Shown: positions 3,788 to 60,092, numbered from the stretch's first letter. The stretch: DNA of 64,000 bases from Candidatus Schekmanbacteria bacterium RIFCSPLOWO2_02_FULL_38_14 (GCA_001790855.1 MGDH01000022.1:7116-71115), one strand, 5' to 3'. The notes: generated from the letters alone by a model not told the origin. Program-made: numbers and translations.

Positions 3788-5707
3788 TCAATTTATGTAA
3801 CCTAGAGCTTTCAATTTTTCCATCATTATCTCATCCTTTATTAAGTTTTCATTCTCTTTTTTGAACAGATTTTTTGGATTATAGTTTGTATCATAGGTTT
3901 CTATTGTTGTTGGAGGATATTTTGAGAGCAAATCCTTGTCAATTATTTCAGTTAATACTTTGCCATCCATATCCTTTCCAATTGGCAAACCTAAAAGATA
4001 TAAAATTGTAGGAGTTATATCATAAATAGTCGGGATTTGACTGTGGAAGGTACCAGAAATATTCTTGCCACTTGCTATAAAAATCCCATCAGAACCAATT
4101 TCATGTCCACCAGATATATTATTAGAAAAAAAATTAAATATTGGTTCGTGGCCATGATCTGAAATTACAAAAAAAGTTGTATTAGCATCTTTATACTGCA
4201 ATAAATCTCCTACATATTCATCTACTTGCTGATAATAATCATATATTAAATTTTCATATTTCTTTTTTTCTACTTTATTTACCCATGGGAATTTATCTAT
4301 GTCAGTATATTTCCAAAAATGGTGCTCAAAATCATCTGTTCCTCTGAAATATAGAGCAAAGAAATCTATATTATTAGATGCTGCAAGTAATCGTTTTGCA
4401 ATGTTGAAATAGATATTTTCTGATGTATAAGTATACTTTACATAAGATGATACAAAGTTACGCTTTTTAATTTCAGGTGAAATGTAAGATGTTATATTGT
4501 CAGAAATTTCACGGCATAAGTTAGTTGGATAAATTAAATCTTCTCTATAGCATTGATATTTATTTAAATCATTTTCATAGTCTCCAGTATTTAAAAGGAA
4601 TCTGTCAGATATAAAATAACCATTAATTATTTCTGCTGGATAGGAGAAAAACCAATTCGCCATTAAGACTTTTTTCTTATTTTGTGTGAGTATATTCCAA
4701 ATAGCAGGAGTTTTTCTATAAATAGGATTTATAGGATATACTCTTGTTAATCCTGTAAACTTGAGATATTGTAGTTTGCCAAATATCCCTTCTTGGAAAA
4801 CTTGACACAATGGCTTGCTTACACCGTTAAGTGATATTAATATAAAGGATTTTATTCCGTGTTTCTTAGGATTTTTACCAGTAGCGATTGAAGTCCATAA
4901 GATTGGAGACTCTGTAGGTATTGAAGTTTTAATATGACTTCTAACGCCATTATCAATAAGTCTTTTTAAGTTATTTAATCCTCCCCTTTTTATCATTGGG
5001 TCTATAATATCCCATGTTGCTCCATCTACACCTATAAGAAAGACCTTGTTTTCAGAAAAAGAATCTCTCACTTTTATTTTTTCAGTTGGTATTGTATTAA
5101 CTGATATTTTAGACCTATTATAAAAGATTGGGGAAACAAGAAATAAGATATAAGCAAAAACAATTATAGTGATAATTATAACTGGATTTAATACCTCATG
5201 AGATTTTCTAAGAATGTTTAAATATATGGTTGCAGATAATTTTGCAAGGATAATTGAAATTATTGCTGATACAATGACAGCACACCACATTAATATTGCC
5301 ATTTTCCAGTAGTTGTCAGCAAATGGGAAGACAGAGTAATAAGAATAAGCACGAATAAATTTATTCAGAAATTGGGAAAAAAGAATCAGAGAGAAAATAA
5401 TCAAAAACACAGATTGCTTAAATGGTTTTTTAATAATAAATGATGGCTTGATGAATAGAAGTGAGACATATATTCCACTAAAAATGACAGTCCCTGCGAT
5501 AGATATAAGAATAGTGTAAAGTAGTATCATGTACAGAGAAATCACAAAAGCATCTGAAAAAGATATGATTCTGTCGTTAAGGAGAATGGTGCCGGCTGTA
5601 ACTAGAACACCATCTAAAAAGCCAATGAGAAACAATGGTATAATTAGCCCTTTTAATTCTGAAAAGAATGTTGTATTAAGTGAATTATTTTTAGTTGTAT
5701 CAGTCAT
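3788..5707 (-). CDS. Membrane-anchored alkaline-phosphatase-superfamily protein (type I phosphodiesterase/nucleotide pyrophosphatase-like)
   Basis: An N-terminal region of about 230 aa with multiple TM helices precedes the FLIGVDGATWDIIDPMIKRGGLNNLKRL...SIPTESPILWTSIATGKNPKKHGI signature of the AlkP/PF01663 fold. The metal-binding ISDHGH segment is present later in the protein. Confidence 0.55.
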   Translation of the reverse strand: MTDTTKNNSLNTTFFSELKGLIIPLFLIGFLDGVLVTAGTILLNDRIISFSDAFVISLYMILLYTILISIAGTVIFSGIYVSLLFIKPSFIIKKPFKQSVFLIIFSLILFSQFLNKFIRAYSYYSVFPFADNYWKMAILMWCAVIVSAIISIILAKLSATIYLNILRKSHEVLNPVIIITIIVFAYILFLVSPIFYNRSKISVNTIPTEKIKVRDSFSENKVFLIGVDGATWDIIDPMIKRGGLNNLKRLIDNGVRSHIKTSIPTESPILWTSIATGKNPKKHGIKSFILISLNGVSKPLCQVFQEGIFGKLQYLKFTGLTRVYPINPIYRKTPAIWNILTQNKKKVLMANWFFSYPAEIINGYFISDRFLLNTGDYENDLNKYQCYREDLIYPTNLCREISDNITSYISPEIKKRNFVSSYVKYTYTSENIYFNIAKRLLAASNNIDFFALYFRGTDDFEHHFWKYTDIDKFPWVNKVEKKKYENLIYDYYQQVDEYVGDLLQYKDANTTFFVISDHGHEPIFNFFSNNISGGHEIGSDGIFIASGKNISGTFHSQIPTIYDITPTILYLLGLPIGKDMDGKVLTEIIDKDLLSKYPPTTIETYDTNYNPKNLFKKENENLIKDEIMMEKLKALGYIN

Positions 5708-5788
5708 AATCTAGCTTAGAAAATTCATTAGATGATTTAAAAGACTTGGTTATGCTTAAGCGATATTAAATATACAGATAGTCGAAAA

Positions 5789-7399
5789 TCAGAAAATTGT
5801 ATTATTTATTTTCCAGATTATAAACATTGTTTTTCTTCCAAAATGATTATACTCTTTTGAACGATAAATTTCATCAGATTTTTTTAATGTCAATGTTCCA
5901 CCAAATACATCATATAAATGGCTAAAACTTTTAAAAAGATATTTATCATAATTTCCACTTCTAACATCAGGGTTGTCCCAAAAAGCATGGTGTACAAAAT
6001 ATTTTATATTTTTTTCTCTGATATAGTCAAGAAACTTTCCCTCCTTGAGATAGTCCTGAAACTCAAAATTGTTAATGACACCATCAATATTTACAATTCT
6101 TCTATTTGAAAAATAGGAGATAATTCCAGCATCCTCAAGCATGAAAATGTCATCAGGGGAGGTATTCTCCTTAATCCAGAGAGCTTCCCTGTAACCTTCG
6201 TACTGAAATCTATTCTCAACAGATCTTTTTACAGAAGCAAACTGAGCTAATAATGCAAGTATGATGAGAAGTGATGCTAAGAAAAAAGATGGTTGTTTGA
6301 TGCCAGGAAAATAGTGCTGAAGTTTTTCCTCTGCTGCACGGATGATAAGAGGCATGACTAAGAGGAGAAAAACAGTATATCCTGCAAAATGCCATCTAAA
6401 AACTGCCCATTTCATAAAGAGGAGTGTATCAAAAAAATGTATTATTACATAAATAGCAAGAACTATCAATACAGCTCTGTATTCTATGTTTGGAGCTAAG
6501 TTTTTTATTGCCTTATTTTTGAATAGTGTAAGAACAAAAAACCCAATTGCAATAAAAAAAATAACAGAAAAATCAATAAACTGATAAAAGTATTCAGGGC
6601 TAAATGATGGGGTAGGAAAGGAATGTTTCAGACTTCCGCTAATGGGGGTTATATGCCCGAATGAGGAGTAATTCCATGCAAGATAAGGGAGGGGGATGAA
6701 AGATGCTGGAATAAAGATGGTAAGAATCTTTTTTAAGTATGTTCCTATTTTCTGCCGTGTTTCTGGTATCAAGACATTGTTTTGAATATTGAATGTTAGG
6801 TAGGATACTATTGATATAAAGTAAAAGATAGAGTCAAGTCTTGCGAGAAAAATGAGAGTGAGAATTATTCCAAAAATGAGGTTTTTCCTGAAATTCCCAT
6901 GAGAAGTCAGAATACAGTGGTTCAAACAGTAGTTTACTGATAATAGCAAAAGGAATATAAGCAGGCCTGCCTCAAGGCCATATTCGGTTTGGCTTAAGAA
7001 ACGAGGCCACATAAATATGGCAAGGGTAACAATAGGATATGGGGATCCGAACTCTCTGTAGAGAATCTTTCCTAAAAGAAATATTATGGCTCCAAGAATT
7101 ACTGCCTGAAGCGTCATAACAAAGTGTATTGAGAGTTCTTCGTTGCCATTTGTCAGATAAAATATTGGGAGGATTGAAAACATCCAAAGAGGATGATACC
7201 CGTTTGTTTTGTTTATTCCGTCAAAAGTAGATGTATGTTCTTTTACAATATTCTGAGTTGTCTTAAAATAATAGAATGCATCATCTACAACTCTTCCAAG
7301 GATAAAGCTCATGTCAAGCCATGAGAATATTAAACGAGTTCCGATGACTATAAATGCTAAAATAAAAAAAAGCTTGTTTTTGCTATATAATGTTTCCAT
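5789..7399 (-). CDS. GT-C fold membrane glycosyltransferase (ArnT/PMT-like), putative
   Basis: More than ten predicted TM helices. Conserved acidic loop motif RVVDDAFYYF sits after TM1, as in GT39/GT83 enzymes. A C-terminal soluble domain is present. Confidence 0.4.
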   Translation of the reverse strand: METLYSKNKLFFILAFIVIGTRLIFSWLDMSFILGRVVDDAFYYFKTTQNIVKEHTSTFDGINKTNGYHPLWMFSILPIFYLTNGNEELSIHFVMTLQAVILGAIIFLLGKILYREFGSPYPIVTLAIFMWPRFLSQTEYGLEAGLLIFLLLLSVNYCLNHCILTSHGNFRKNLIFGIILTLIFLARLDSIFYFISIVSYLTFNIQNNVLIPETRQKIGTYLKKILTIFIPASFIPLPYLAWNYSSFGHITPISGSLKHSFPTPSFSPEYFYQFIDFSVIFFIAIGFFVLTLFKNKAIKNLAPNIEYRAVLIVLAIYVIIHFFDTLLFMKWAVFRWHFAGYTVFLLLVMPLIIRAAEEKLQHYFPGIKQPSFFLASLLIILALLAQFASVKRSVENRFQYEGYREALWIKENTSPDDIFMLEDAGIISYFSNRRIVNIDGVINNFEFQDYLKEGKFLDYIREKNIKYFVHHAFWDNPDVRSGNYDKYLFKSFSHLYDVFGGTLTLKKSDEIYRSKEYNHFGRKTMFIIWKINNTIF

Positions 7400-7657: not shown

Positions 7658-8617
7658 ATGAACATAATTATAAAAAAAATTATAAAAGAAACTTTTAGCT
7701 TTTTTGTTTTTTACTCAGGAATTCTTTCTATATATCGTTTTTTAAGAAAAAAAAAGATAACAATATTAAATTATCATGATATTAAAGGTGAGGATTTTGA
7801 AAGACATGTGAAATATTTAATAAGGCATTTTGATATTATTCCTCTCGGTGAATGTGTGGATTGTCTGAATGAGGGTAAGGAAAAGAGCAATAGCCTTGTA
7901 ATTACTTTTGACGATGGCTATAAGTTATTCTATAAAGAAATATTTCCTATACTTAAAAAATATAGTATTCCTGCGACTGTTTTTATAGCAACCGATTATG
8001 TGGGTTCAAGTAAGCTTTTCTGGTTTGATTTGCTAAAACTATATTTCGAAGAAAAAGGTGTTGAAGCCTTCAAAAAAAAATTGGAGAATATAAGAGGAGA
8101 TTTTGATTCAGTAGTTAGCTCTCTAAATCAGTTAGGAGAAGATGAAAAGAGGAGAAAAATCGTAGAAATTATAGAAGGATATGAAATAGATCATGAGAAT
8201 AATAACAAAGCAGCAAATTATCGTATCCTGAACTGGAAAGAGATAAAGGAGATGGCAGGAGGTCTTATTTGTTTTGGTGCCCATACAATGAGCCATCCAA
8301 TACTGACCAAAATTTCACTTGATAGAGCACGAGAGGAAATTTTTGGTTCAAAGGATATATTAGAAAGGCAACTTGAAGTAGAGATAAAATTCTTTGCCTA
8401 TCCCAATGGAGACGTTACTGATTTTGATGATAATATAATCAAAATTGTTAAAAAAGCAGGTTTTTCCTCTGCCCTTACTACAATTGACGGAAATTGCAAA
8501 ATCGGGGATGATTTGTTCATATTAAAGAGAAAGGTGATAGATGGGAAATTTAGTATACCATGTCTTGCAGCTAAGATAGCAGGGTTGTGGGTTTCATTGA
8601 CAAGAAAAGGCATATAA
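7658..8617 (+). CDS. Polysaccharide deacetylase (NodB homology / CE4 family)
   Basis: Motifs VITFDDGYK, TVFIATDYVG and LICFGAHTMSHPIL...FFAYPNGD are typical of the CE4 catalytic domain. Confidence 0.75.
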   Translation: MNIIIKKIIKETFSFFVFYSGILSIYRFLRKKKITILNYHDIKGEDFERHVKYLIRHFDIIPLGECVDCLNEGKEKSNSLVITFDDGYKLFYKEIFPILKKYSIPATVFIATDYVGSSKLFWFDLLKLYFEEKGVEAFKKKLENIRGDFDSVVSSLNQLGEDEKRRKIVEIIEGYEIDHENNNKAANYRILNWKEIKEMAGGLICFGAHTMSHPILTKISLDRAREEIFGSKDILERQLEVEIKFFAYPNGDVTDFDDNIIKIVKKAGFSSALTTIDGNCKIGDDLFILKRKVIDGKFSIPCLAAKIAGLWVSLTRKGI

Positions 8618-8622
8618 GTAGA

Positions 8623-9720
8623 ATGAATAAAAAATATAACTATAATTTAAGAAAATATAAAAAAGAAGACATGAAAGAAATTTTTGAACTCATGAGATTT
8701 ATCTATCCAGAAGAAAAATATAATAATTTTATTCATCGAAGGAGAAAAATGTGGGAGTGGGAGTTCTTGGAAAATCCTTTGATAAAAAAAGGGGAGGAAA
8801 AAATTTGGGTTGCTGAAGATAGCGGAAAAATTATAGGACATGTTGCAACTATGCCAGTGAAGTTGAAATGTGATGACAAATATTACATTGCCCATTTTGC
8901 AATGGATTTAATAGTTGATAGTGCTTATAGAGGGAAAGGTATTGGACAGGGTTTAATGGAAGCTTGGAGAGATAGTAGCGAAATAGCTATTGGACTTGGC
9001 TTAACTCCTGCGGTCTTACCAATCTATTATAAGTTGGGATGGAAAGTTTTTAATACAAAAAAGGTATTGGTAAAGGTATTTAAAAGTAGAAAAATTTTGA
9101 AAAAATTAATAAAAAAAGAAAATATTTTATTGAGAACTGGAGAAAAACTAATTAATTCTGGATTAAAGGCTTTTAACTTCGTTTTGAGTAAGCCTTTAAA
9201 AGTAGATTGGAAGAGTATTTTTGAAATTTATGAATTTGATTCAAAGATTGATATTTTTTGGGAAAAAGTAAAGGATGATTATAACATTGCTTTGAGAAAG
9301 AGTAAGGATTATTTAAATTGGAAATATACCAATCATCCCTATTACCAGTATAAAAAGTTTTATTATATGGGAAAGGATGGAATTAAAGGATATGTAGTTT
9401 TAAGGGAATCAGAGGAAGAGGGTTATTGCGAAGGGCATATTGTAGATATGATGACAAGAGCAGATGATTTTAAATCGATGGGTTTAATGGTAGCATGGAT
9501 AATTGATTATTTTAGAAAAAATGGAGTAGAATGTATTTACTTTATGACCACATGTGCAAATCAGAGAAAAGTGCTTTTAAGGAATGGATTTTTACCTCTT
9601 AAGAGAGGTCCTGTTTTTTCTGTCTATTCCCACGATAAAGATTTGCTTAAAAGATTATGGAGTTTTAACGATTGGTTTCTAACCAAAGATTCTTCGGATT
9701 TAGAAATATCTTACATTTAA
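8623..9720 (+). CDS. GNAT-fold acyltransferase (FemAB/GNAT-like), start adjusted to second Met
   Basis: HFAMDLIVDSAYRGKGIGQGLMEAW resembles the GNAT acyl-CoA binding motif. The ORF is longer than a minimal GNAT, so it is Fem-like. An upstream in-frame Met at 8587 would overlap the deacetylase gene, so the start at 8623 is preferred. Confidence 0.5.
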   Translation: MNKKYNYNLRKYKKEDMKEIFELMRFIYPEEKYNNFIHRRRKMWEWEFLENPLIKKGEEKIWVAEDSGKIIGHVATMPVKLKCDDKYYIAHFAMDLIVDSAYRGKGIGQGLMEAWRDSSEIAIGLGLTPAVLPIYYKLGWKVFNTKKVLVKVFKSRKILKKLIKKENILLRTGEKLINSGLKAFNFVLSKPLKVDWKSIFEIYEFDSKIDIFWEKVKDDYNIALRKSKDYLNWKYTNHPYYQYKKFYYMGKDGIKGYVVLRESEEEGYCEGHIVDMMTRADDFKSMGLMVAWIIDYFRKNGVECIYFMTTCANQRKVLLRNGFLPLKRGPVFSVYSHDKDLLKRLWSFNDWFLTKDSSDLEISYI

Positions 9721-27331: not shown

Positions 27332-27438
27332 TGTCATTGCGAGCGATAGCGAAGCAATCTCGGTTTTTAGCTATTAGCTGATAGCTGTCAGTATTGTAAT
27401 GAGATTGCTTCGTCGCTAAATAGCTCCTCGCAATGACA
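27332..27438. repeat. Palindromic repeat element, copy 1 (about 107 bp; arms GTCATTGCGAG...CGAAGCAATCTC)
   Basis: Left arm TGTCATTGCGAGCGATAGCGAAGCAATCTC and right arm GAGATTGCTTCGTCGCTAAATAGCTCCTCGCAATGACA are inverted complements. The central loop holds GCTGATAGCTGTCAG. A second copy lies at 50507..50623. Confidence 0.7.
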
Positions 27439-27467
27439 AAGACTTTTTTCAACAGCCTGTTAAAGCT

Positions 27468-27493
27468 GTTTAGGATTTCGAATTTAGAATTTT
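27468..27493. repeat. AT-rich interspersed repeat GTTTAGGATTTCGAATTTAG, copy
   Basis: Identical 20-mer at 45696. Related copies at 52004 and, in reverse complement, at 49435. Confidence 0.6.
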
Positions 27494-45274: not shown

Positions 45275-45577
45275 CTATGGCATCGTGTTTTTCAGAATTG
45301 TATTCTCTATCGCTATTTTATCTTCTTCTATTATTTTTTCCTCTCTCTCACCTGTTCTGTTATCCACTGCAACTATCCTGCACCTGCTTCCGAAAACGCA
45401 GATTACTTCGTTTTGATATTGATGATAATGATTCCCGCGAACAACTTCTGGTTTAAGACTTACAAGATGCAGATTGAAAAGCTTTTTGCTTTGAAGCTCT
45501 TCATCGCTGATTGGTCTTATTGCAATACCGCGGTTATCAGATGAGAAGTTTAAATCCTCAATTTTTATAAATTTCAT
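45275..45577 (-). CDS. Cupin-fold small protein, hypothetical
   Basis: 100 aa. ...VVRGNHYHQYQNEVICVFGSRCRIV resembles a cupin metal-binding motif. Confidence 0.3.
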   Translation of the reverse strand: MKFIKIEDLNFSSDNRGIAIRPISDEELQSKKLFNLHLVSLKPEVVRGNHYHQYQNEVICVFGSRCRIVAVDNRTGEREEKIIEEDKIAIENTILKNTMP

Positions 45578-45589
45578 AACATCTCACTT

Positions 45590-45730
45590 TTATGTTTAAG
45601 TTCCAAATTCTAATATCTAAATCCTAAACAAATTCCAAATTCTAATCACCTAAATTCAAAACAAATTTGAAGATTTGAATTTTGGATTTAGATATTGTTT
45701 AGGATTTCGAATTTAGGATTTAATCCCACT
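45590..45730. repeat. AT-rich palindromic intergenic repeat cluster (GTTTAGGATTTCGAATTTAGGATTT and its complement)
   Basis: Left part TTCCAAATTCTAATATCTAAATCCTAAACAA and right part GATATTGTTTAGGATTTCGAATTTAGGATTT are mutual reverse complements. Family members occur at 27468, 47394-47500, 49430-49571 and 51975-52040. Confidence 0.6.
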
Positions 45731-45735
45731 ATCTA

Positions 45736-46587
45736 TCATTTCCACGCAATTAATATGCTTATGTACGGTGATTTTATTGCTTCCTGTGCTTCCTTGTCAA
45801 AAAAGTAGTAATTGCTATAATATTTATCAAGCTCTGCTTTTACATCACTGTATAGCAGAGTTTTAGCGCCTATTTTTGAAAATGCCTTGTCATATCCATA
45901 AATCTTTCCTGTGATACTAAGCCAGTCTCCGAGAACAAGGATATCTGCAGCTTTTGCAATGTTTGCAATTGAACTTATGCCTGCATAGGTTATTGTGTAG
46001 CGCTCGTATAAAAGGGCTGGTGGAGTTATAGAGGCGAGGAGTTCTTTTGATGGTGATTCCTTAATGTCCCAGAGAAACGGGTTTATTTTAACTTCTGGGA
46101 AATCTTCTTTTAGCTTATCTATTACTTTATTTATTACAGGTTTTGACTCGGTGACAACAAGTGGAAAATAGTTTTTTTTACTTTTCATTGCTTTGCAGGC
46201 AAGACGTGTTAGTTTGCCGTTTCCTGCGCCTATTTCCAAAAGAGTTTTAGGTTTGATTGCTCCAGCAAGTGTGATTGCAATTTCTACAACTGTTTCCCCG
46301 AAAAACTGGTGAAAAACTCCGCCTGAAATTGCTGCAAAGGCTTCTCTCAGTTTAGGGCTGTTCCAGTCAAACTCTCCAAGGTTTTCCATTTCAATCAAAA
46401 TCTTCATTGCCCGCAGTTCGTTGTGGAATGCTTTTGGAATTTTATTTTCATCTACCGGTTGGCGATGATAAACCTTTTCTGACGCTTCAGCCCAGATTTC
46501 CCAGTTTTCAAAATGCTCTATCTGAAAACGAGTATATCTTTCTTGAAGAGCTACGAGTTTATCTTTTACAAGCTGGTGGTTAAGCAT
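45736..46587 (-). CDS. Hypothetical protein, possible class I SAM-dependent methyltransferase
   Basis: LLEIGAGNGKLTRLA resembles SAM-binding motif I (E/D-x-G-x-G-x-G). No further motif support. Confidence 0.3.
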   Translation of the reverse strand: MLNHQLVKDKLVALQERYTRFQIEHFENWEIWAEASEKVYHRQPVDENKIPKAFHNELRAMKILIEMENLGEFDWNSPKLREAFAAISGGVFHQFFGETVVEIAITLAGAIKPKTLLEIGAGNGKLTRLACKAMKSKKNYFPLVVTESKPVINKVIDKLKEDFPEVKINPFLWDIKESPSKELLASITPPALLYERYTITYAGISSIANIAKAADILVLGDWLSITGKIYGYDKAFSKIGAKTLLYSDVKAELDKYYSNYYFFDKEAQEAIKSPYISILIAWK

Positions 46588-46637
46588 TTAAAAATCCCTT
46601 ATGTGTAAAGGGTTAAAGGATTCGAGGATTTCCGGGT

Positions 46638-47393
46638 TTATCCCTGTTGTACGAGCTTTTTTACTTTTTCAACAACATCCTTACTTTCTGAAAATCCTTT
46701 TGGACATTCAACAACGCATTCAGATGGCTTTTCGCATTTAAGGATTCCAAGTTCCCTTAACTCATGGATTCTTGCATCTCTTGTTGCATCTCTTGCATCA
46801 AGGATGAACCTATATGATTTTACAATGCTGGCTGGGCTTAAAAAAGAGCTGTCCTTATCGAGTACCATACAATCTGAATGGCATACAGCACAAAGTGTGC
46901 ACTGGGAGATCTTTGTGAGAGTATTGAAATCATCAGAATAATTAACCCTGAATTCACCTGATTCCGGAATTTTTGAAAAATCCTTTACAAGCCATGGCTT
47001 TGCTTTTTTCAAATTTTCTATGAAGGGTTCAAGGTCAACAACGAGGTCTTTAATGAGATTAAAATGCTTTAATGGCTCAATTACTATTACCCCGTTTTTA
47101 GGGAGTATGTCCTTTGCCTGAGTATTACAGGCGAGCATTGCCTTTCCATTAATGCGGACTGCGCAGGAACCACAGATGGCGCTTCTGCATGAACGTCTAA
47201 AGGTCAGTGTTCCATCAATTGTTTCTTTTATCTTAATCAGGGTATCAAGAACAGTCTCTCCGCCGGTGATTTTAATCTTGTAGTTTTTAAAATGTGGTTT
47301 GGGGTCTGTATCCTTATTGAACCTCTGGATTTCAAGGGTGATTTGTTTGTCCTTCATTTTTGCTCCTTTAGTAATTATAAGTTTAAATGACAA
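46638..47393 (-). CDS. sdhB: Succinate dehydrogenase / fumarate reductase iron-sulfur subunit
   Basis: 2Fe-2S motif FRRSCRSAICGSCAVRINGKAMLAC, then CxxCxxC...CP cluster motifs. Length is 251 aa. Confidence 0.85.
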   Translation of the reverse strand: MSFKLIITKGAKMKDKQITLEIQRFNKDTDPKPHFKNYKIKITGGETVLDTLIKIKETIDGTLTFRRSCRSAICGSCAVRINGKAMLACNTQAKDILPKNGVIVIEPLKHFNLIKDLVVDLEPFIENLKKAKPWLVKDFSKIPESGEFRVNYSDDFNTLTKISQCTLCAVCHSDCMVLDKDSSFLSPASIVKSYRFILDARDATRDARIHELRELGILKCEKPSECVVECPKGFSESKDVVEKVKKLVQQG

Positions 47394-47500
47394 AATCCAA
47401 ATTTCAAATCAATAACAAAATCCAAATGTTAAAAGTTTTAATCATTGGAGCTTTGAATTTCATTTGAACTTTGAGATTTAGCATTTGTCATTAGCTTGTC
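47394..47500. repeat. AT-rich intergenic repeat (AAAATCCAAAT / GAATTT units) between frdA and frdB
   Basis: AAAATCCAAATTTCAAATCAATAACAAAATCCAAAT...TTTGAATTTCATTTGAACTTTGAGATTTAG shares ATCCAAAT/GAATTT unit motifs with the 45590, 49430 and 51975 repeats. Confidence 0.45.
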
Positions 47501-49177
47501 TTAATAAACCCTTTTCTGTGGCTGATACTTTGTTACAGACACTGGCTCGTAGGAAATATTTATTTTTCCATCCTTGCCTTTTTTTGCGATAGTATGCTTC
47601 ATCCAGTTTTTGTCATTTCTTTCAGTATAGTCATTCCTGTAATGTGCTCCTCTGCTTTCCTTCCTGTTCAGGGCACCAAGGGCTATAATCTCAGAAATCG
47701 TAAGAAGGAACTCCATCTCAATGACTGAAGTGAGCTGTGTATTGTAAACAGTGCCTTTGTCCTGGATAAAAACTTTTTTTGCCCTTTCCTGAAGTTTCTT
47801 TATTTCTTTAAGAGCCTGTTCTATTTCATTACCGACTCTAAAGACCCCTACTTTGAATGTAAGAATTTCTGAAAGTTCTTTTCTTATTGCAGAGGATGAT
47901 TCTTTTCCTTTACGGTCAACAAGCTTCTTTATCCTTTTCTCTTCATCTTTTAGAATATTTTCGCTTATCTTGGAAAACTCAGCGGATGATACAAATTTTT
48001 CTAAATTTCTTCCGACTCTTCTGCCAAAAACAACTGTCTCAAGAAGTGAATTTCCTCCAAGCCTGTTGGCTCCGTGGACACTTACGCAGCCACACTCTCC
48101 AACCGCATACAGCCCTTTTATGTTTGTTTCTCCGTTAACATTATTCCTGATTCCGCCCATGGAATAGTGCTGTGCGGGTTGAACAGGCATTGGTTCTTTA
48201 ACTATGTCAACACCTGCAAATTTCTTTGCAAGCTCTTTTACCTGAGGGATCTTTTCATTTATTTTTGCTTCACCAAAGTGAGTTACATCGAGGTGAACAT
48301 ATTCATTCTCAAATCCTCTTCCTTCTCTTACCTCTATTTGTATACACCGAGAAACAACGTCTCTTGGGGCAAGTTCCATTTTTGATGGAACATATCTTTC
48401 CATAAACCTCTCATCTTTGTTGTTTTTAAGATATCCGCCTTCACCCCTTACACCTTCTGATACGAGAATGTTGGTTCCAAAAAGAGTTGTTGGGTGGAAC
48501 TGGACAAATTCCATATCAGCAAGAGGTGTTCCTATCTCATAGGCAAGAGCCATTCCATCACCGGTATTTATATGAGCATTGGTAGTTCGAGCAAAGGCTC
48601 TCCCATATCCCCCTGTTGCTAAGACTATTGCCTTTGTTTTCAAGAGTTCAAAATTACCTTTTTGCATATTATAGCAAATAGCACCTTTGCAGACCCCATC
48701 TTCTGCGATCAATTTGGTGACAAATCGTTCATTATAGATTTTTACATTGCTCTTAAGAAGTTGTTCATAGAGGAGGTGAAGAAGGGTATGACCTGTTAAG
48801 TCTCCAAAAAAACAAGCTCGAGGAAAGCTTGCGCCTCCTAGCTCTCTCTGGGCAATCTTTCCATCCTCAGTCCTGCTAAAGATTGCTCCCATGTGCTCTA
48901 TTTCGTAGATGTTTTCAGGGGCTTCCTTAATGAGAATCTCAATGGCGTTCTGGTCACCAAGATAATCGCCTCCCTTTACAGTATCAAAAATATGGCTTTC
49001 AAGAGTATCTTCAGGGTTAAGTACTGCATTGATTCCTCCCTGCGCTGCACCTGAATGGGAGCGTGTGGGATAGACTTTTGAAATAATTCCTACGTTGGCA
49101 TATTTAGATGCTTCTATTGCAGCCCTCATTCCTGCAATTCCTGCGCCGACTATGACTATGTCGTGGTAAATCATCAA
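47501..49177 (-). CDS. sdhA: Succinate dehydrogenase / fumarate reductase flavoprotein subunit
   Basis: FAD-binding [13 protein letters not shown]. The covalent-FAD histidine context [13 protein letters not shown] is present. Catalytic ...HYSMGGI... region. Length is 558 aa. Confidence 0.9.
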
Positions 49178-49193
49178 TTAATCTCCCTTCTTA

Positions 49194-49406
49194 TTAATAT
49201 AGTCTTACTATTTCTATTGCATCAACAGGACATTTTTCAAGGCAGAGATTGCACAGAGTGCATTCGTCTTCATTTGCCTCAACAGAGATTATGGTGTTAT
49301 CTTTCTTGTCAAAAATATTCACAGGACATATTTTGACACATTCACCACAGTCCTTGAATCCGCGGCATGTTTTCTGGTTGATTTTTATGTTTATGAAAAT
49401 ACTCAT
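49194..49406 (-). CDS. 2x[4Fe-4S] dicluster ferredoxin (70 aa)
   Basis: CRGFKDCGECVKICP and CTLCNLCLEKCP are two CxxCxxCxxxCP motifs. It lies 16 nt upstream of frdA on the same strand. Confidence 0.75.
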   Translation of the reverse strand: MSIFINIKINQKTCRGFKDCGECVKICPVNIFDKKDNTIISVEANEDECTLCNLCLEKCPVDAIEIVRLY

Positions 49407-49429
49407 CCTTTTCTCCCTCTGTGTATGAG

Positions 49430-49571
49430 TTATAAATCCTAAATTCTAATATCTAAATTCCCTGCCTGTCGGCAGACAGGTAAACAATATCAAAATTCCA
49501 ATTTTTAAAACTGTTTTGGATTTTGGTCATTTGAATTTGTTTAGAATTTAGAGCTTAGGCTTTAGAATTTT
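49430..49571. repeat. AT-rich intergenic repeat cluster plus GC hairpin CCTGTC-GGCA-GACAGG
   Basis: TAAATCCTAAATTCTAATATCTAAATTCC is the reverse complement of the 45696-type repeat. TTTGTTTAGAATTTAGAGCTTAGGCTTTAGAATTTT is a forward copy. A GC hairpin lies at 49461..49480. Confidence 0.55.
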
Positions 49572-50468
49572 TTATGATACATTCTTTCTAATAAGCTCTA
49601 TTATCTCAGAAAATTTTTCTGCAACAAGGATTCCTGCATCCCTGAATTTTTCTATTTTGCCTTTTGTACTTCCTCTATTTCCTTCAACAATTGCTGCTGC
49701 GTGGCCAAAACGGATACCCGGCATCTCATCAGCGAATCTTCCTGCAACAAATGCGATTATTGGAAGTTTGATTTTGTTTTCCTTTACAAACTCTGCAAGA
49801 AGTTCTTCTGCTGTACCTCCGGGTTCGCAGAAGATTACGATTGCCTTTGTCTGGTTGTCTTTCTGGAAAAGTGGAACGAGGTCAAGGTAGTTTGAACCGA
49901 CAATTGCATCTCCTCCAACGCTAATGCAGGTGCTCTGTCCGATTCCGTTTAATGTCAGGAGGTTGGCAATCTCTGTTGTCATTCCTCCGCTTCTTGAGAT
50001 TATTCCTATATTCCCTTCACTGTAAGCCTTCTTTACATCATCAACTCTTCCGCCAACCATTCCAATTTTGGTCTTGTGAGGCGATATTATTCCAAGGGAG
50101 TTTGGTCCTATTACTGTTGCGCCTTTTTCTCTTGCAAAAGCAACTATCTCAACTACATCCTTTCTTGGAACTCGTTCTGTTACAATGACAACAAGTTTAA
50201 TGCCATTATCAATCGCCTCAAGGCTTGCACCTTTTACCATTCCGGGCGGAACTGATATTATGCTTGCTTCAGCAGGGTGTACGGTTATTGCTTCTTTTAC
50301 TGTATCATAGACAGGGACACCGTAAACATCCCATCCGCCCTTGCCGGGAGTTATTCCTGCAACAACTTTTGAGCCGTAATCAAGTAAATCCCTCGTAAAA
50401 GTGGTTGCCTCTCTGCCGGTAATTCCCTGAATGATTATCCTTGTATTTTCATCAGCCAAGATTGACAT
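49572..50468 (-). CDS. sucD: Succinate--CoA ligase [ADP-forming] alpha subunit
   Basis: The CoA-binding N-terminus RIIIQGITGREATTF and the SRSGGMTTE segment are present. The expected phosphohistidine loop around GHAAAI is present. Length is 298 aa. Confidence 0.9.
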   Translation of the reverse strand: MSILADENTRIIIQGITGREATTFTRDLLDYGSKVVAGITPGKGGWDVYGVPVYDTVKEAITVHPAEASIISVPPGMVKGASLEAIDNGIKLVVIVTERVPRKDVVEIVAFAREKGATVIGPNSLGIISPHKTKIGMVGGRVDDVKKAYSEGNIGIISRSGGMTTEIANLLTLNGIGQSTCISVGGDAIVGSNYLDLVPLFQKDNQTKAIVIFCEPGGTAEELLAEFVKENKIKLPIIAFVAGRFADEMPGIRFGHAAAIVEGNRGSTKGKIEKFRDAGILVAEKFSEIIELIRKNVS

Positions 50469-50506
50469 CTCATTCTCCTTAATTTATCTCTTGAACTTTA
50501 TTTTTT

Positions 50507-50623
50507 GTCATTGCGAGCGACCAACGGGAGCGTGGCAATCTCATCTTTTACTTGGGAATGTTGTAACATGTTACTATAATTACTGAATTGAGATTGCTTC
50601 GTCGCTTTGCTCCTCGCAATGAC
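50507..50623. repeat. Palindromic repeat element, copy 2, inserted between sucC and sucD
   Basis: Arms TGTCATTGCGAGCGA...GGCAATCTC and GAGATTGCTTCGTCGCTTTGCTCCTCGCAATGAC match copy 1 at 27332..27438. It occupies most of the 182-bp sucC-sucD spacer. Confidence 0.7.
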
Positions 50624-50650
50624 TTTTTAAAACTGTTCACTAATCACTGT

Positions 50651-51829
50651 TCACTTACTCGCTCTCTCAACAGCCATTCTTGCGGCTTCATCTATTGAAA
50701 CGGTTCTGTCGCAGTATGGCACACCATATTTCTTCAATATTCTGAACCCTTCATCCTCCCAAGCGCCTGGAATTCTGAAAACGGTTATGGTTTCTGAAGG
50801 AACCTTGCCGCTTTCAATTACGCCTTTAACTACTCCTCTTGCTACCAGGTCAACTCTGGTGTTGCTGACTACATTCATTATGACTGCAATTTTATTGATT
50901 CCTGGCTTTGAAAGGATGTGCTTGACAAGTTCTTTAACTTTGAAAACAGAAGGGTTCCCTCCAATCTCACAGTAATTGGCAGGTTTGCCGCCATATTTTT
51001 TTATTGCGTCAAATGATGTCAGGCTCGCTCCACCGCCGCCAATCAGAAGACCGAGATTCCCGTCAAATTCAATCATTCTTCCTGCAACTCCACGATGGTC
51101 CATTTTGTCAATTTCCGCTGCCTTTTTCTCAAATTCTGTCTGCTTCTTTGACTGGCTTTCCCTTTCACCAAATTCTGCGACAAGACTCTTTTGGCGGTAG
51201 AGGGCATCGTCATCAATCTCAATATGTCCATCAAGGGCTATGAATTTCCCGTCCTTTGTTTTTCCAAGAGGGTTTATTTCAGCAAGGGTTGCATCATATT
51301 TCAGAAATACCTGAACGAGCCTGTAAAGAACCGATGAAATCTGGAGCAGGTCATTTCCATTTATTCCTGCCTGCGCGACCATTTCTCTTGCATGGTGTTC
51401 CTGAAACCCCTCAATGATGTTAAAACTTTTTCTTACAATTTTTTCAGGATTGGTTTTTGCCAGTTCTTCGATATCAACCCCGCCTTCAGTGCAGAAAATT
51501 ACAACGGGGAGTTTTCTTGTAGTGTCGTAGGTTGCAGCCATAAAGAGCTCTTTTTCAAGAGCTATCTGGTCTTCAACAAGAAGCTTTGAAACAAGGTGGT
51601 TCTTAATAGTGCTTCCGAGAAGCTGCTTTCCTTTATCTTTGGCTTCTTTTAAATCTTTTGAGAAAAGAACACCGCCTGCTTTTCCTCTGCCGCCTGTTGG
51701 TATCTGTGCTTTGATTACAGAAGGAGTTTCCGCCTTGATTTCATCAACAGACGAGACTACCTGCCCTTTGGGTGCCGGAATGTTGTTTGCCTGAAAAATT
51801 TTTTTACTTTCAAATTCATAAAGTCGCAT
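50651..51829 (-). CDS. sucC: Succinate--CoA ligase [ADP-forming] beta subunit
   Basis: MRLYEFESKKIF...IPAPKG ATP-grasp N-terminus. C-terminal ligase-CoA domain ...NPLG...GGGA.... Length is 392 aa. Confidence 0.9.
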   Translation of the reverse strand: MRLYEFESKKIFQANNIPAPKGQVVSSVDEIKAETPSVIKAQIPTGGRGKAGGVLFSKDLKEAKDKGKQLLGSTIKNHLVSKLLVEDQIALEKELFMAATYDTTRKLPVVIFCTEGGVDIEELAKTNPEKIVRKSFNIIEGFQEHHAREMVAQAGINGNDLLQISSVLYRLVQVFLKYDATLAEINPLGKTKDGKFIALDGHIEIDDDALYRQKSLVAEFGERESQSKKQTEFEKKAAEIDKMDHRGVAGRMIEFDGNLGLLIGGGGASLTSFDAIKKYGGKPANYCEIGGNPSVFKVKELVKHILSKPGINKIAVIMNVVSNTRVDLVARGVVKGVIESGKVPSETITVFRIPGAWEDEGFRILKKYGVPYCDRTVSIDEAARMAVERASK

Positions 51830-51926
51830 TTTCTAACTCCCAAAATATGCTTTGCTTTTAAGCTCAAGTTTATATAAAAATCGTGGCTTTCATATTGATA
51901 TTTGCTCTATTTGTCAAGGCAAAAAA

Positions 51927-52040
51927 CGAAGCAATCTTTTTAAAAAGCTGACAGCAGACAGCTATCAGCTTTGAGCATTTGGAATTTGAATAATTTAGAT
52001 ATTGTTTAGGATTTAGGATTTTGAATTTAGAAATTAATAT
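51927..52040. repeat. Partial palindromic-element fragment (CGAAGCAATCT + GCTGACAGCAGACAGCTATCAGC) followed by AT-rich GTTTAGGATTT repeat copy
   Basis: It shares CGAAGCAATCT and the GCTGATAGCTGTC motif with copy 1. It is followed by GATATTGTTTAGGATTTAGGATTTTGAATTTAG. Confidence 0.5.
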
Positions 52041-52043
52041 CTA

Positions 52044-53018
52044 CTAACTTGCCAACAACCTTGCTGCTTCCTTTGCAAAATATGTGATTATCATATCTGC
52101 GCCTGCGCGTTTGATTGATAGGAGGCTTTCCATCATGATTCGTTTCTCATCTATCCATCCGAGTTTACCGCCTGCTTTTATCATGGAGTATTCACCGCTT
52201 ACCTGAAAGGCTGCAAGAGGGATATTGAACTGCTGTTTAGCCCTGTAGATTATATCAAGATAGGGAAGGGCAGGTTTTACCATTACAATGTCAGCGCCTT
52301 CCTCTATGTCCTGAGCTATTTCTCTTATTGTCTCATCAGAGTTTGCAGGGTCTATCTGGTGAGATTTTCTGTCTCCAAATTCTGGCCTTGATTCTGCTGC
52401 TTCCCTGAAAGGAGCATAAAAAGATGATGCGTATTTTGCTGCATATGACATTATTGATATATCTTCAAAACCGTTTTCATCAAGAATTTTTCTGATTGCT
52501 TTCACTCTTCCATCCATCATATCTGATGGGGCAACAATATCAGCGCCTGCTTCAGCGTGGCTTAAGGAAATTTTTGTCAAAGTATCTATTGTCGCGTCAT
52601 TATCAATTTTTCCTTTTTTAATCACTCCGCAGTGGCCATGGTTTGTGTATTCACACAGACAGATATCAGTGATTACAATAAGTTCAGGAATGTTGTTTTT
52701 AATCCTTCTGATTGCCTTTTGAATTATTCCATCCTTTGTATAGGCTTCTGAGCCAAACTCATCCTTTTTCTTAGGAATTCCAAACAGGATTATTGCGGGG
52801 ATGTTTAATTTACTGACTTCCTTTGCTTCTTTAAGGAGGTTGTCAATTGACAACTGAAAGCATCCGGGCATCGACTTAATTCCATTCCTGACATTTTTCC
52901 CTTCGCAGACAAAAACCGGGCATATAAGGTTGTCAGTTGAAAGCCTTGTTTCTCTGACCATCCTTCTTATATTTTCATTCCTTCTAAGCCGACGCAAACG
53001 GTGAGTTGGGTAAGACAT
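52044..53018 (-). CDS. hemB: Porphobilinogen synthase (delta-aminolevulinic acid dehydratase)
   Basis: Active-site region ...[19 protein letters not shown]-like ([18 protein letters not shown]). The metal-binding Cys-rich segment [14 protein letters not shown] is present. Length is 324 aa. Confidence 0.9.
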
Positions 53019-59687: not shown

Positions 59688-59774
59688 AATGATTAAGAAT
59701 ACTAATTTAATTAAAAAAATCCATGATTTTAATCATAGTTTATTGAAAAAAGTTTAGCAGAAAGCTTATATCCC

Positions 59775-59804
59775 ATAAAATAAAAACGCACCCAAAGGGG
59801 TGCG
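59775..59804 (-). terminator. Rho-independent terminator downstream of the moaD-like gene
   Basis: On the minus strand, hairpin CGCACCC-CTTT-GGGTGCG (7-bp GC-rich stem) is followed by TTTTTATTTTAT. Confidence 0.6.
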
Positions 59805-59843
59805 CAACATTTTGCAATTTAAAATTTCCAATTTTAAATTTAT

Positions 59844-60092
59844 TTAAGATGCTCCTCCTGCAACAGGTGGGAATATGGCTACACGGTCTCCGTCTTTTAA
59901 AAGACAGCTGAGTTCAGCATGGACTCCGTTCACAATAATTATCTTTGTTTCTTTTTCAGGGATTCCAAGCTGGTGAAGCAGCCCCTGTATGGTAAGACCT
60001 TCTTTGGCGGAAATCTTTTTGCCTTCTTTCAAATCAAGTCCGGGCAAATATTTTAATAAAGTAGCATATGTCCTGACTTCAATATCTGCCAT
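59844..60092 (-). CDS. MoaD/ThiS-family ubiquitin-like small protein ending ...VAGGAS (Gly-Gly followed by two extra residues)
   Basis: 82 aa. Beta-grasp-like composition. C-terminus DRVAIFPPVAGGAS has the GG motif of sulfur carriers plus a 2-residue tail. It sits immediately downstream of the AOR gene. Confidence 0.55.
   Translation of the reverse strand: MADIEVRTYATLLKYLPGLDLKEGKKISAKEGLTIQGLLHQLGIPEKETKIIIVNGVHAELSCLLKDGDRVAIFPPVAGGAS

Follow-up and report, generated by a model that had tools for sequence, protein, structure and literature searches.

In Xanthomonas repeats of GGGAATC, and in Nostoc and Anabaena repeats of GGGGA(C/T)T (STRR-type), are 89-93% intergenic, lying mostly between open reading frames (ORFs) that are aligned, rarely between divergent ones, at 0-50 bp from a stop codon (Rehm et al. 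2015, PMC4692102). Each genome has ~70 inverted pairs, which could fold into stem-loops, and arrays of ~4 units are favoured; the repeats are transcribed, keep their locations, and have been read as formers of G-quadruplexes (PMC4692102). These heptameric inverted repeats are the closest relatives of the element that we describe here, an AT-rich palindrome present in five copies in a stretch of 64,000 nucleotides from Candidatus Schekmanbacteria bacterium RIFCSPLOWO2_02_FULL_38_14 (GCA_001790855.1 MGDH01000022.1:7116-71115; the whole of this stretch is called the window). The two share tandem 7-nt units, placement after stop codons, a bias toward aligned ORFs and an arrangement in inverted pairs. 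They differ in that the repeats of Xanthomonas and Nostoc are G-rich, near-perfect and restricted to a genus, whereas the units in the window are degenerate, contain at most GG with no possibility of a G-quadruplex, and form part of a 140-nt element whose inner arms are conserved and non-periodic, and which is common to about 12 phyla and to phages.

Two further systems bear comparison. Direct repeats of TAACTGA occur in Beggiatoaceae, Cyanobacteria and Bacteroidetes, where horizontal transfer is suspected with no known mechanism (MacGregor 2015, PMC4679880). These are also intergenic heptamer arrays spread across distant phyla, whose units place a stop in every frame and in some cases run into the stop codon of the gene upstream. 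By contrast with the window family, which is palindromic and anchored to the upstream stop, they are direct repeats (with one inverted set) located just upstream of start codons. The other system is the intervening sequence (IVS) of 23S rRNA. That of Coxiella burnetii, a selfish element of 428 nt, carries an S23p ORF and has inverted repeats at its termini (Warrier et al. 2016, PMC4990558). Immediately upstream of the ATG are two or three GACAGAT heptamers in tandem, depending on the strain; the first of these is where RNase III cuts, and S23p is a homopentamer (PMC4990558). As set out below, the element of the window is multi-copy, is present or absent at orthologous spacers, lies past stop codons, accepts nested palindromes and has no linked gene. 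On balance it is probably an ORF-less, IVS-like invasive palindrome that is tolerated in 3′ untranslated regions and intercistronic spacers, probably forming a stem-loop of the RNase III type.

The 20-mer GTTTAGGATTTCGAATTTAG is found exactly at 27468-27487 and 45697-45716 (an earlier note on this DNA had placed the second at 45696). Allowing up to three mismatches it matches the window five times, whereas dinucleotide shuffles predict 0.01. A repeat search gives a direct-repeat family at 27457-27493, 45686-45722, 49528-49564 and 51993-52029, and Tandem Repeats Finder resolves each site of the earlier note into a short array with a period of seven, consisting of TTTAGGA, TTTAGAA or TAAATTC units that are degenerate (70-84% matches). 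All the variants that had been listed, including a looser one, form one family. A profile made from unrelated genomes recovers exactly those five sites.

The copy at 45596-45725 is complete, and lies in the spacer between a Methyltransf_33-like gene (stop codon 45736-45738) and a cupin-like ORF (start codon 45575-45577). It scores 88 bits with nhmmer on both strands. In gene sense its 5′ arm comprises AAATCCT/AAATTCG heptads followed by AAAC, and its 3′ arm GTTT followed by AGGATTT/AGATATT heptads, generating an inverted repeat with 56-nt arms that are 71% complementary. The local palindrome suspected at 45590-45730 is real, with inverted partners at 45596-45641 and an internal palindrome 45605-45660 / 45666-45721. 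The calculated fold of the RNA has a minimum free energy (MFE) of -34.8 kcal/mol (z = -4.1). A second complete copy at 49431-49572 (60 bits) fills the spacer between sucD and the ferredoxin gene (fdx), adjoining the sucD stop codon (49572-49574) and ending 24 nt ahead of the ferredoxin start (49406); its RNA folds with an MFE of -42.1 kcal/mol (z = -6.6). One arm of this hairpin contains a nested 20-nt GC-rich palindrome CCTGCCTGTCGGCAGACAGG at 49462-49481, which throws the heptads out of register and makes a side hairpin by itself.

The remaining copies are less complete. The spacer between frdA and frdB contains a degenerate full-length copy at 47379-47486 (23 bits; MFE -27.8 kcal/mol, z = -3.3), from which a conserved block reaches to ~47500. 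A half copy at 51954-52036 (36 bits) lies just past the hemB stop codon (52044-52046) and consists, in gene sense, of the 5′ arm with its outer and inner parts. Next to it come a piece of another palindromic family (51927-51970) and, after that, the sucC promoter; in the RNA fold it has no hairpin partner (z = -1.6). The fifth copy, at 27468-27493, is a single arm of three heptads plus GTTT that includes the exact 20-mer (19 bits), beginning 7 nt past the stop of a minus-strand gene that is unrelated (its product ends ...GDTLIVVE*) and adjoining a palindromic element at 27333-27437.

The general layout of the element, read in gene sense, is stop codon, (AAATYCN)x3-5, AAAC, inner arm, loop, complementary inner arm, GTTT, (NGRATTT)x3-5, where GTTTAGGATTTCGAATTTAG is the start of the 3′ arm of the hairpin. 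It is a short, non-coding sequence of ~100-150 nt with complementary, terminally inverted arms, and is AT-rich (~27% G+C, where the window has 27-43%). The arms are runs of 3-6 degenerate 7-nt units and the inner arm is less periodic. In the window copies the loop measures 5-30 nt, and there is no ORF inside. Copies begin with AAAAT... and end with ...ATTTT(T), the base of the stem is A-U only, and some upstream ORFs end inside the first heptad of the element. A MAFFT alignment of copies from 13 genomes reveals conserved non-periodic blocks, i.e. CTAAACAAAT, CAAATGAC/GTCATTTG and AAAAC...GTTTTG, and the A-rich arm is favoured as the first by 30 to 8. Over 55 full-length copies the median length is 139 nt and the median MFE is -33 kcal/mol, with a median z of -4.9 and z < -3 in 45 of them. 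Their G+C content is 0.18-0.39, compared with 0.31-0.61 for the host loci.

We note that small GC-rich palindromes are nested inside the heptad hairpins at several places (compared loci are numbered with the prefix L), i.e. window 49462-49481, L140, L043, L111, L107, L083, L020 and L126. They are of the types CCTGCCTG..CAGGCAGG and GGAATCCCGC..GCGGGAAT, and that in L126 is an 85-nt insert (2870-2955). This suggests that palindromic elements insert preferentially into one another. A second, unrelated palindromic family of ~105-117 nt, GTCATTGCGAG...CGAAGCAATCTC ... GAGATTGCTTCG...CTCGCAATGAC, is present in the window at 27333-27437 and 50507-50623, with a partial copy at 51927-51970. It occupies the sucC/sucD spacer, and adjoins the two partial heptad copies (27468-27493 and 51954-52036). 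Sequences like those at 27333-27437 and 50507-50623 are presumably widespread in genomes assembled from groundwater metagenomes.

An exact scan for TTTAGGATTTNGRATTTNGRATTT in one genome per GTDB species gave at least 120 matches. Among those listed some are pure (TTTAGGA)n arrays, while about half share the architecture of the window copies, including the non-periodic blocks. A profile hidden Markov model was built from 13 genomes together with one window copy, and an nhmmer search gave 133 sites in 105 sources among the matches listed. The same detailed consensus was found, on the same footing, in metagenome-assembled genomes (MAGs) of about 12 phyla (55 full-length copies). The host labels include Patescibacteria (many classes), Saccharibacteria, Elusimicrobia, Planctomycetota, Nitrospirota, Chloroflexota, Gamma- and Deltaproteobacteria, Bacteroidota, WOR-3, Omnitrophota, Stahlbacteria and Schekmanbacteria. 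Five contigs (L001-L005) are 99.99-100% identical to the window and are thus uninformative. The similarity does not arise from a simple low-complexity AT bias, a doubt that had been raised when the repeat was first noted, as conserved non-repetitive features of the inner arms score up to 114 bits across phyla. The repeat is a real, dispersed, multi-copy palindromic family. No match to an Rfam family at the gathering threshold and no tRNA or rRNA was found in the entire window, nor any Rfam covariance-model match at E up to 1 within 45400-52200. We found no published description of the element in the literature searched; that search was incomplete, and such sequence matches as it gave were primer coincidences.

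The family is also found in phages. The same pattern is present in 34 IMG/VR stretches, and there are four profile-positive copies in the 6.7 kb of contig L242, three in the 8.2 kb of L222, two in L244 and two or three in L236. Genes for capsid, adaptor, portal and terminase proteins are encoded on both L242 and L222, with the copies located in the spacers between those genes; one fills its spacer exactly, running from 2183 to 2322 between a gene that ends at 2180 and the next at 2327. These two structural modules hold 3-4 copies, one per spacer, a density far above that of the bacterial loci. Operons that are densely packed and strongly expressed can thus accommodate the element. Its location between structural genes of phages provides a possible vehicle for spread between hosts. 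No match to the element was found in the plasmids of PLSDB, and the GenBank phages gave a single weak partial match of 56 bits.

Comparison with related Schekmanbacteria shows that the element is polymorphic in its presence. The SucD of the window is 100% identical to a protein of a RIFCSPHIGHO2_02_FULL MAG. The identity of sucD with the SucD of the window is 95% in L126, 89% in L127 and 80-83% in L128, L129/L130, L211 and L212/L213. In the last group the sucD/fdx spacer is 19-25 nt and the sucC/sucD spacer 42-46 nt, compared with 165 and 182 nt respectively in the window; both spacers are filled in the window, L126 and L127. L126 has heptad hairpins in its sucD/fdx and methyltransferase/cupin spacers, so that the copy at 45596-45725 has an orthologous, diverged counterpart at the same site. 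The hairpins of L126 are nevertheless a genome-specific version: they match the window copies at 61-74% identity with numerous indels (4-fold degenerate sites are 62-70% identical), and share their own nested GC-rich insert, from which we conclude that they have been propagated as units. In L127 the sucD/fdx and methyltransferase/cupin spacers hold other palindromes, and the sucC/sucD spacer holds a PF05635 gene. The occupation of the same spacers by different elements in the window, L126 and L127 indicates that these spacers have been repeatedly invaded. The elements are turned over or homogenised within genomes.

These data bear upon a simpler explanation, in which the arrays are ordinary heptameric simple sequence repeats grown in situ by polymerase slippage, and the likeness between genomes is convergence on an AT-rich unit with nothing mobile. 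Heptamers are the most over-represented class of long simple sequence repeats in bacteria (as cited in PMC4679880 and PMC4692102). In Pedobacter, Pirellulales and Anaerolineales there are indeed (TTTAGGA)n arrays that are purely tandem, and the number of heptads varies between orthologous copies of our element, as it does between strains in the Coxiella IVS. Slippage would be hard pressed, however, to generate non-periodic inner-arm blocks and a fixed arm polarity common to several phyla, elements that remain AT-rich in hosts of 58-61% G+C, whole 140-nt units that are present or absent at orthologous sites, or the shared nested insert of the L126 copies. We therefore give it little credence.

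The context of the element was examined for sites scoring at least 40 bits (n = 63), where 41 are between co-directional genes, six between convergent and two between divergent genes. Going by crude ORF calls, a median of ~10 nt separates the element from the stop codon upstream, and a median of ~50 nt from the start that follows. No neighbouring protein family recurs among 438 ORFs from 54 loci, and in a scan neither promoter-like nor terminator-like sites were enriched in the elements, terminator counts being equal to those of shuffled controls.

These placements can be set against the idea that the repeats serve as a common operator or UP element, so that a single DNA-binding protein would co-regulate the frd, suc and ferredoxin genes, i.e. 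a branch of the tricarboxylic acid (TCA) cycle. Four of the five window copies are indeed within 6.5 kb around the frd and suc genes, and direct heptad repeats are reported to bind some regulators, for example those of the SARP-LAL type. Yet the fifth (27468) follows an unrelated gene, the same element stands between unrelated genes in about 12 phyla (among the matches listed) and in phage structural modules, and relatives among the Schekmanbacteria with the same gene order lack it in the orthologous spacers. Nor is it placed as an UP element or promoter motif would be: the copies are 3′ of genes, past their stop codons, and the conserved sucC promoter is separate from and outside the element. 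The family thus lacks the features of a transcription-factor regulon, which would occupy promoter regions of functionally related genes and be conserved with them. We consider a common operator to be hardly credible, and conclude that the element is unrelated to the regulation of TCA-cycle genes.

The position directly past stop codons, together with the under-representation of divergent spacers, might alternatively be that of bidirectional intrinsic terminators or attenuators, i.e. long hairpins between an A-run and a T-run. The termini have the required character (AAAAT... and ...ATTTT(T)), and both strands fold equally well. But the A-U base of the stem is not that of an intrinsic terminator, the stems being A-U rich, and the terminator scan flagged none of the elements. 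Moreover, copies occur inside sucD/fdx, between frdA and frdB (that encode subunits of one enzyme) and in phage capsid/portal/terminase modules, where termination would be costly, and a separate canonical GC-rich terminator follows a heptad array at ~59760-59800 in the window. A role in termination thus seems improbable.

Two mechanistic ideas were tried and rejected. The first was that an AGGA-rich 3′ arm supplies a Shine-Dalgarno sequence that pairing with the UCCU-rich 5′ arm would hide; a Shine-Dalgarno sequence outside the element is present at many of the downstream genes, the spacing is inconsistent, and arms of the PF05635 type (see below) lack AGGA. The second was provision of stop codons in all frames as a general rationale. 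The 5′ arm does supply TAA in three frames, but other heptad families do not.

Turning to the genes that may be related to the element, L127 contains two PF05635 genes (23S_rRNA_IVP; TIGR02436 'four helix bundle protein'), downstream of hemB and in the sucC/sucD spacer (4230-4592 and 8544-8906), both of which lie between inverted heptad arms (AAATTGC/AAAATGC ... TTTTGCA). Such arms were present at all six PF05635 genes in the first set of loci examined. A further 80 metagenome loci were gathered using a three-sequence PF05635 alignment, and in these the pattern is general, with A-rich heptads running up to the ATG and complementary T-rich heptads from the stop codon. Comparing 67 PF05635 genes with 132 long control genes from the same loci, the period-7 excess is 0.129 vs 0.030 upstream (p = 3e-7) and 0.173 vs 0.043 downstream (p = 7e-9), the fraction of A upstream is 0.45 vs 0.28 (p = 8e-15) and the fraction of T downstream is 0.47 vs 0.24 (p = 4e-18). 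The sequence of the heptad varies with lineage and host G+C content, including AAAATCA, AAAAGTC, AAAGGCA, AATCCCC, GTAAAAA and ATGAAGG (L127, L131-L210, L248-L253). Conserved 23S motifs were found in none of the 80 loci, and there is no PF05635 ORF in the 64-kb window. In one locus (L143) a PF05635 gene with its own arms is nested between arms of the window's family, the 3′ arm being scored by nhmmer and the 5′ arm visible; in another (L149) similar arms are seen by eye, not significant by nhmmer.

Heptad-armed PF05635 genes are also found in cultured organisms, i.e. Anabaena cylindrica, Planktothrix, Nostoc flagelliforme, Bernardetia, Chlorohelix and Treponema. Some of these cassettes are located in defence operons. 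That of Anabaena cylindrica pANACY.01 (L248) lies between cas2 and cas1, and that of Planktothrix p1 (L249) between DISARM drmD and BREX pglX, with heptads AATCCCC/AATCGTA ... CGATTTA/GGATTTA. On a Chlorohelix plasmid (L251) the cassette lies between a helicase and an N6-methylase.

The period of seven is retained while the heptads around PF05635 genes differ (AAAATCA, AAAGGCA, AATCCCC, GTAAAAA), suggesting a constraint on spacing. This would be expected if the arrays were primarily a protein-binding platform and the hairpin secondary, the protein being a pentameric PF05635/Avd-like four-helix bundle or an OB-fold protein of the Csp or S1 type, contacting ~7 nt each. The arms have 3-6 units and S23p is a homopentamer (PMC4990558), and CspB binds T-rich heptamers (PMC4679880). 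However, there is no PF05635 gene in the window and few PF05635 loci have this heptad family, while the complementarity of the arms is itself strongly non-random; the binding is a prediction. We regard a platform as rather unlikely to be the primary function.

We return to the reading of the element as an invasive palindrome of the IVS kind. It resembles the 23S rRNA IVS in having inverted repeats that would form a long stem, tandem heptamers within that stem and a composition that is AT-rich relative to the host. The Coxiella IVS is in addition a selfish, horizontally-acquired insertion that is cut by RNase III within the stem. Heptad arms of this kind also surround PF05635 genes outside rRNA, which occupy the niche after a stop codon as the window element does. 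The differences are that the window copies contain no ORF, use a different heptad family, and lie in mRNA spacers rather than in helix 25 or 45 of 23S rRNA, and that RNase III processing is known for Coxiella and predicted for the window copies. The element is probably an ORF-less member of an architectural class that is best known from the 23S rRNA IVS, in which inverted heptamer arms surround a PF05635 'S23p' ORF. It would have spread horizontally, with phages as plausible vehicles, and have invaded spacers by a mechanism leaving no target-site duplication. Transcription of the operon would generate an imperfect stem-loop of 40-55 bp, a plausible substrate for RNase III and protector of 3′ ends, which would uncouple the fates of the flanking cistrons without terminating transcription. 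Most copies look neutral with quick turnover, with at least that between frdA and frdB apparently co-opted by the host.

That copy is orthologous in the window and L127, where it is 84-86% identical with no indels. This is far more than expected of neutral change: identity between the two is 44-47% at the 4-fold degenerate sites in sucC, sucD, fdx, frdA and frdB, and 57% in the stretch directly downstream of the element. The copy evolves like coding DNA, which suggests constraint at the level of the host, and it appears to have been co-opted. An apparent excess of compensatory change in this pair was rejected, as the RNAalifold count (4 vs 20) is circular and the effect is lost with single-sequence MFE structures as references.

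Imperfect palindromes that are intercistronic or 3′ in location, co-transcribed, and modulate the processing or stability of mRNA are well known in bacteria as ERIC/IRU, Correia/NEMIS, RUP and REP/BIME, those of ERIC and Correia being 100-160 nt in length. Intercistronic stem-loops are used as RNase III sites by phage T7, and some transcribed palindromic families (Correia, RUP) have TA or other duplications and identifiable insertion-sequence relatives. To our knowledge the known bacterial MITE (miniature inverted-repeat transposable element), REP and ERIC families are restricted to a genus or family. The window element differs in its cross-phylum range, in lacking heptad-free terminal inverted repeats and in that no target-site duplication was found. 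REP/BIME are imperfect palindromes of 20-40 nt that have a conserved head of the GTAG type and are mobilised by a RAYT; the window element is not one of them, having a unit of ~140 nt with heptad arms and no GTAG head, and no Y1 or RAYT-like gene was detected nearby. The suggestion of a second MITE family made in the earlier note holds in so far as this is a dispersed, multi-copy, non-coding palindrome with presence/absence polymorphism. A target-site duplication was not found, as the longest word shared by the flanks averages 3.43 (53 copies), compared with 3.28 for unmatched flanks, and no cognate transposase was detected among the nearby genes. For these reasons we term it MITE-like rather than a demonstrated MITE.

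Several observations weigh against our interpretation. No target-site duplication was seen in the 53 copies, where the ends are fuzzy so that very short ones (e.g. TA) could be missed. No gene recurs as a neighbour in 54 loci, taking 8-kb pieces of genome and nearby genes alone, and a search for an IS200-like TnpA near the elements, a weak test made with an approximate query sequence, gave one marginal match 3.4 kb from an element. The full-length members all belong to MAGs or to contigs of uncultured viruses, and mis-binning may account for some of the phylum labels. Few PF05635 loci have arms of the window's family, most using other heptads, and the link with PF05635 is mainly architectural, with one statistically supported nested case (L143) and one seen by eye (L149). 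There is no sign of selection at the level of RNA on the transcribed strand: the sense strand folds better in just 20 of 38 co-directional elements (p = 0.68), and G-U pairs number 151 vs 146 between the strands of the same elements. Compensatory change is not evident in the orthologous frdA/frdB pair, where substitutions in the stem are not depleted (single-sequence MFE structures, p = 0.36). In the lack of a sense-strand advantage in either folding energy or G-U pairs, the palindromy looks like a property of the DNA. Finally, the conserved frdA/frdB copy does not fit purely selfish DNA.

The genes around the window copies are all on the minus strand, i.e. hemB (53018-52044), sucC (51829-50651), sucD (50468-49572), the ferredoxin gene (49406-49194), frdA (49177-47501), frdB (47393-46638), the Methyltransf_33-like gene (46587-45736) and the cupin-like ORF (45577-45275). 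It had been claimed that every intergenic space here is decorated. Four of the eight spacers in the stretch do carry the family, while those of sucC/sucD, fdx/frdA (16 nt) and frdB/methyltransferase (50 nt) do not; the sucC/sucD spacer is occupied by the different palindrome at 50507-50623. The labels of the flanking genes likewise need some adjustment, in that the gene adjoining 45736 is Methyltransf_33-like and the 'cupin' is the small ORF 45275-45577. The latter has homologues of 133 aa in relatives that match FdtA/Cupin_2; it is 100 aa in length here, compared with 133 aa from the same start in L126 and L127, and may be C-terminally truncated or frameshifted.

A promoter-like TTGACA-N17-TATGAA is located upstream of sucC (window ~51889-51917) and is conserved in L127 and L128 (CCTTGACA...), indicating that sucC begins its own transcription unit, downstream of the half element on the hemB side. 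In L126 an ORF of 92 aa of the GIY-YIG type (5982-6260) separates frdB from the methyltransferase gene; the window, with its spacer of 50 nt at this place, lacks it. In L127 a further flavoprotein gene resembling frdA, with a ferredoxin-like coding stretch after it (5243-7320), is found upstream of sucC, where the window has hemB. Gene order around the reductive TCA-cycle genes is thus fluid. Elsewhere in the window, at 59755-59848, an A-rich heptad array (AAATAAA, TTTAAAA, TTGGAAA, TTTTAAA, TTGCAAA in gene sense) lies past the stop of a ThiS-like gene, followed by the canonical GC-rich terminator noted above (GCGCACCCCTTTGGGTGCG plus a T-run). This array is not detected by the family profile.

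A broader and distinctly tentative possibility is that a single, hitherto unrecognised cross-phylum class of invasive elements unites the ORF-less hairpins, the PF05635 cassettes (including those at cas2/cas1 and in DISARM/BREX loci), the 23S IVS, and the heptamers of cyanobacteria, Xanthomonas and Beggiatoaceae. The period of 7 nt would then be the footprint of a pentameric PF05635 (Avd-like) protein or of an RNA chaperone, acting in trans on the ORF-less copies either in mobility or in RNase III-dependent excision, and phages would act as shuttles between phyla. An AT-rich family that obeys the same rules of placement with no G-quadruplex points to the period-7 hairpin, rather than the G-quadruplex, as the common denominator of the heptamer repeats.

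It is unusual for a non-coding sequence of 140 nt to be nearly unchanged across about a dozen phyla, in hosts of up to about 60% G+C, and in phages. Such elements inflate intergenic spacers, break metagenome assemblies and can pass for regulatory motifs. The general occurrence of heptad arms around PF05635 genes offers a testable approach to the function of the S23p/Avd-like proteins, and to the origin of the intervening sequences of rRNA.

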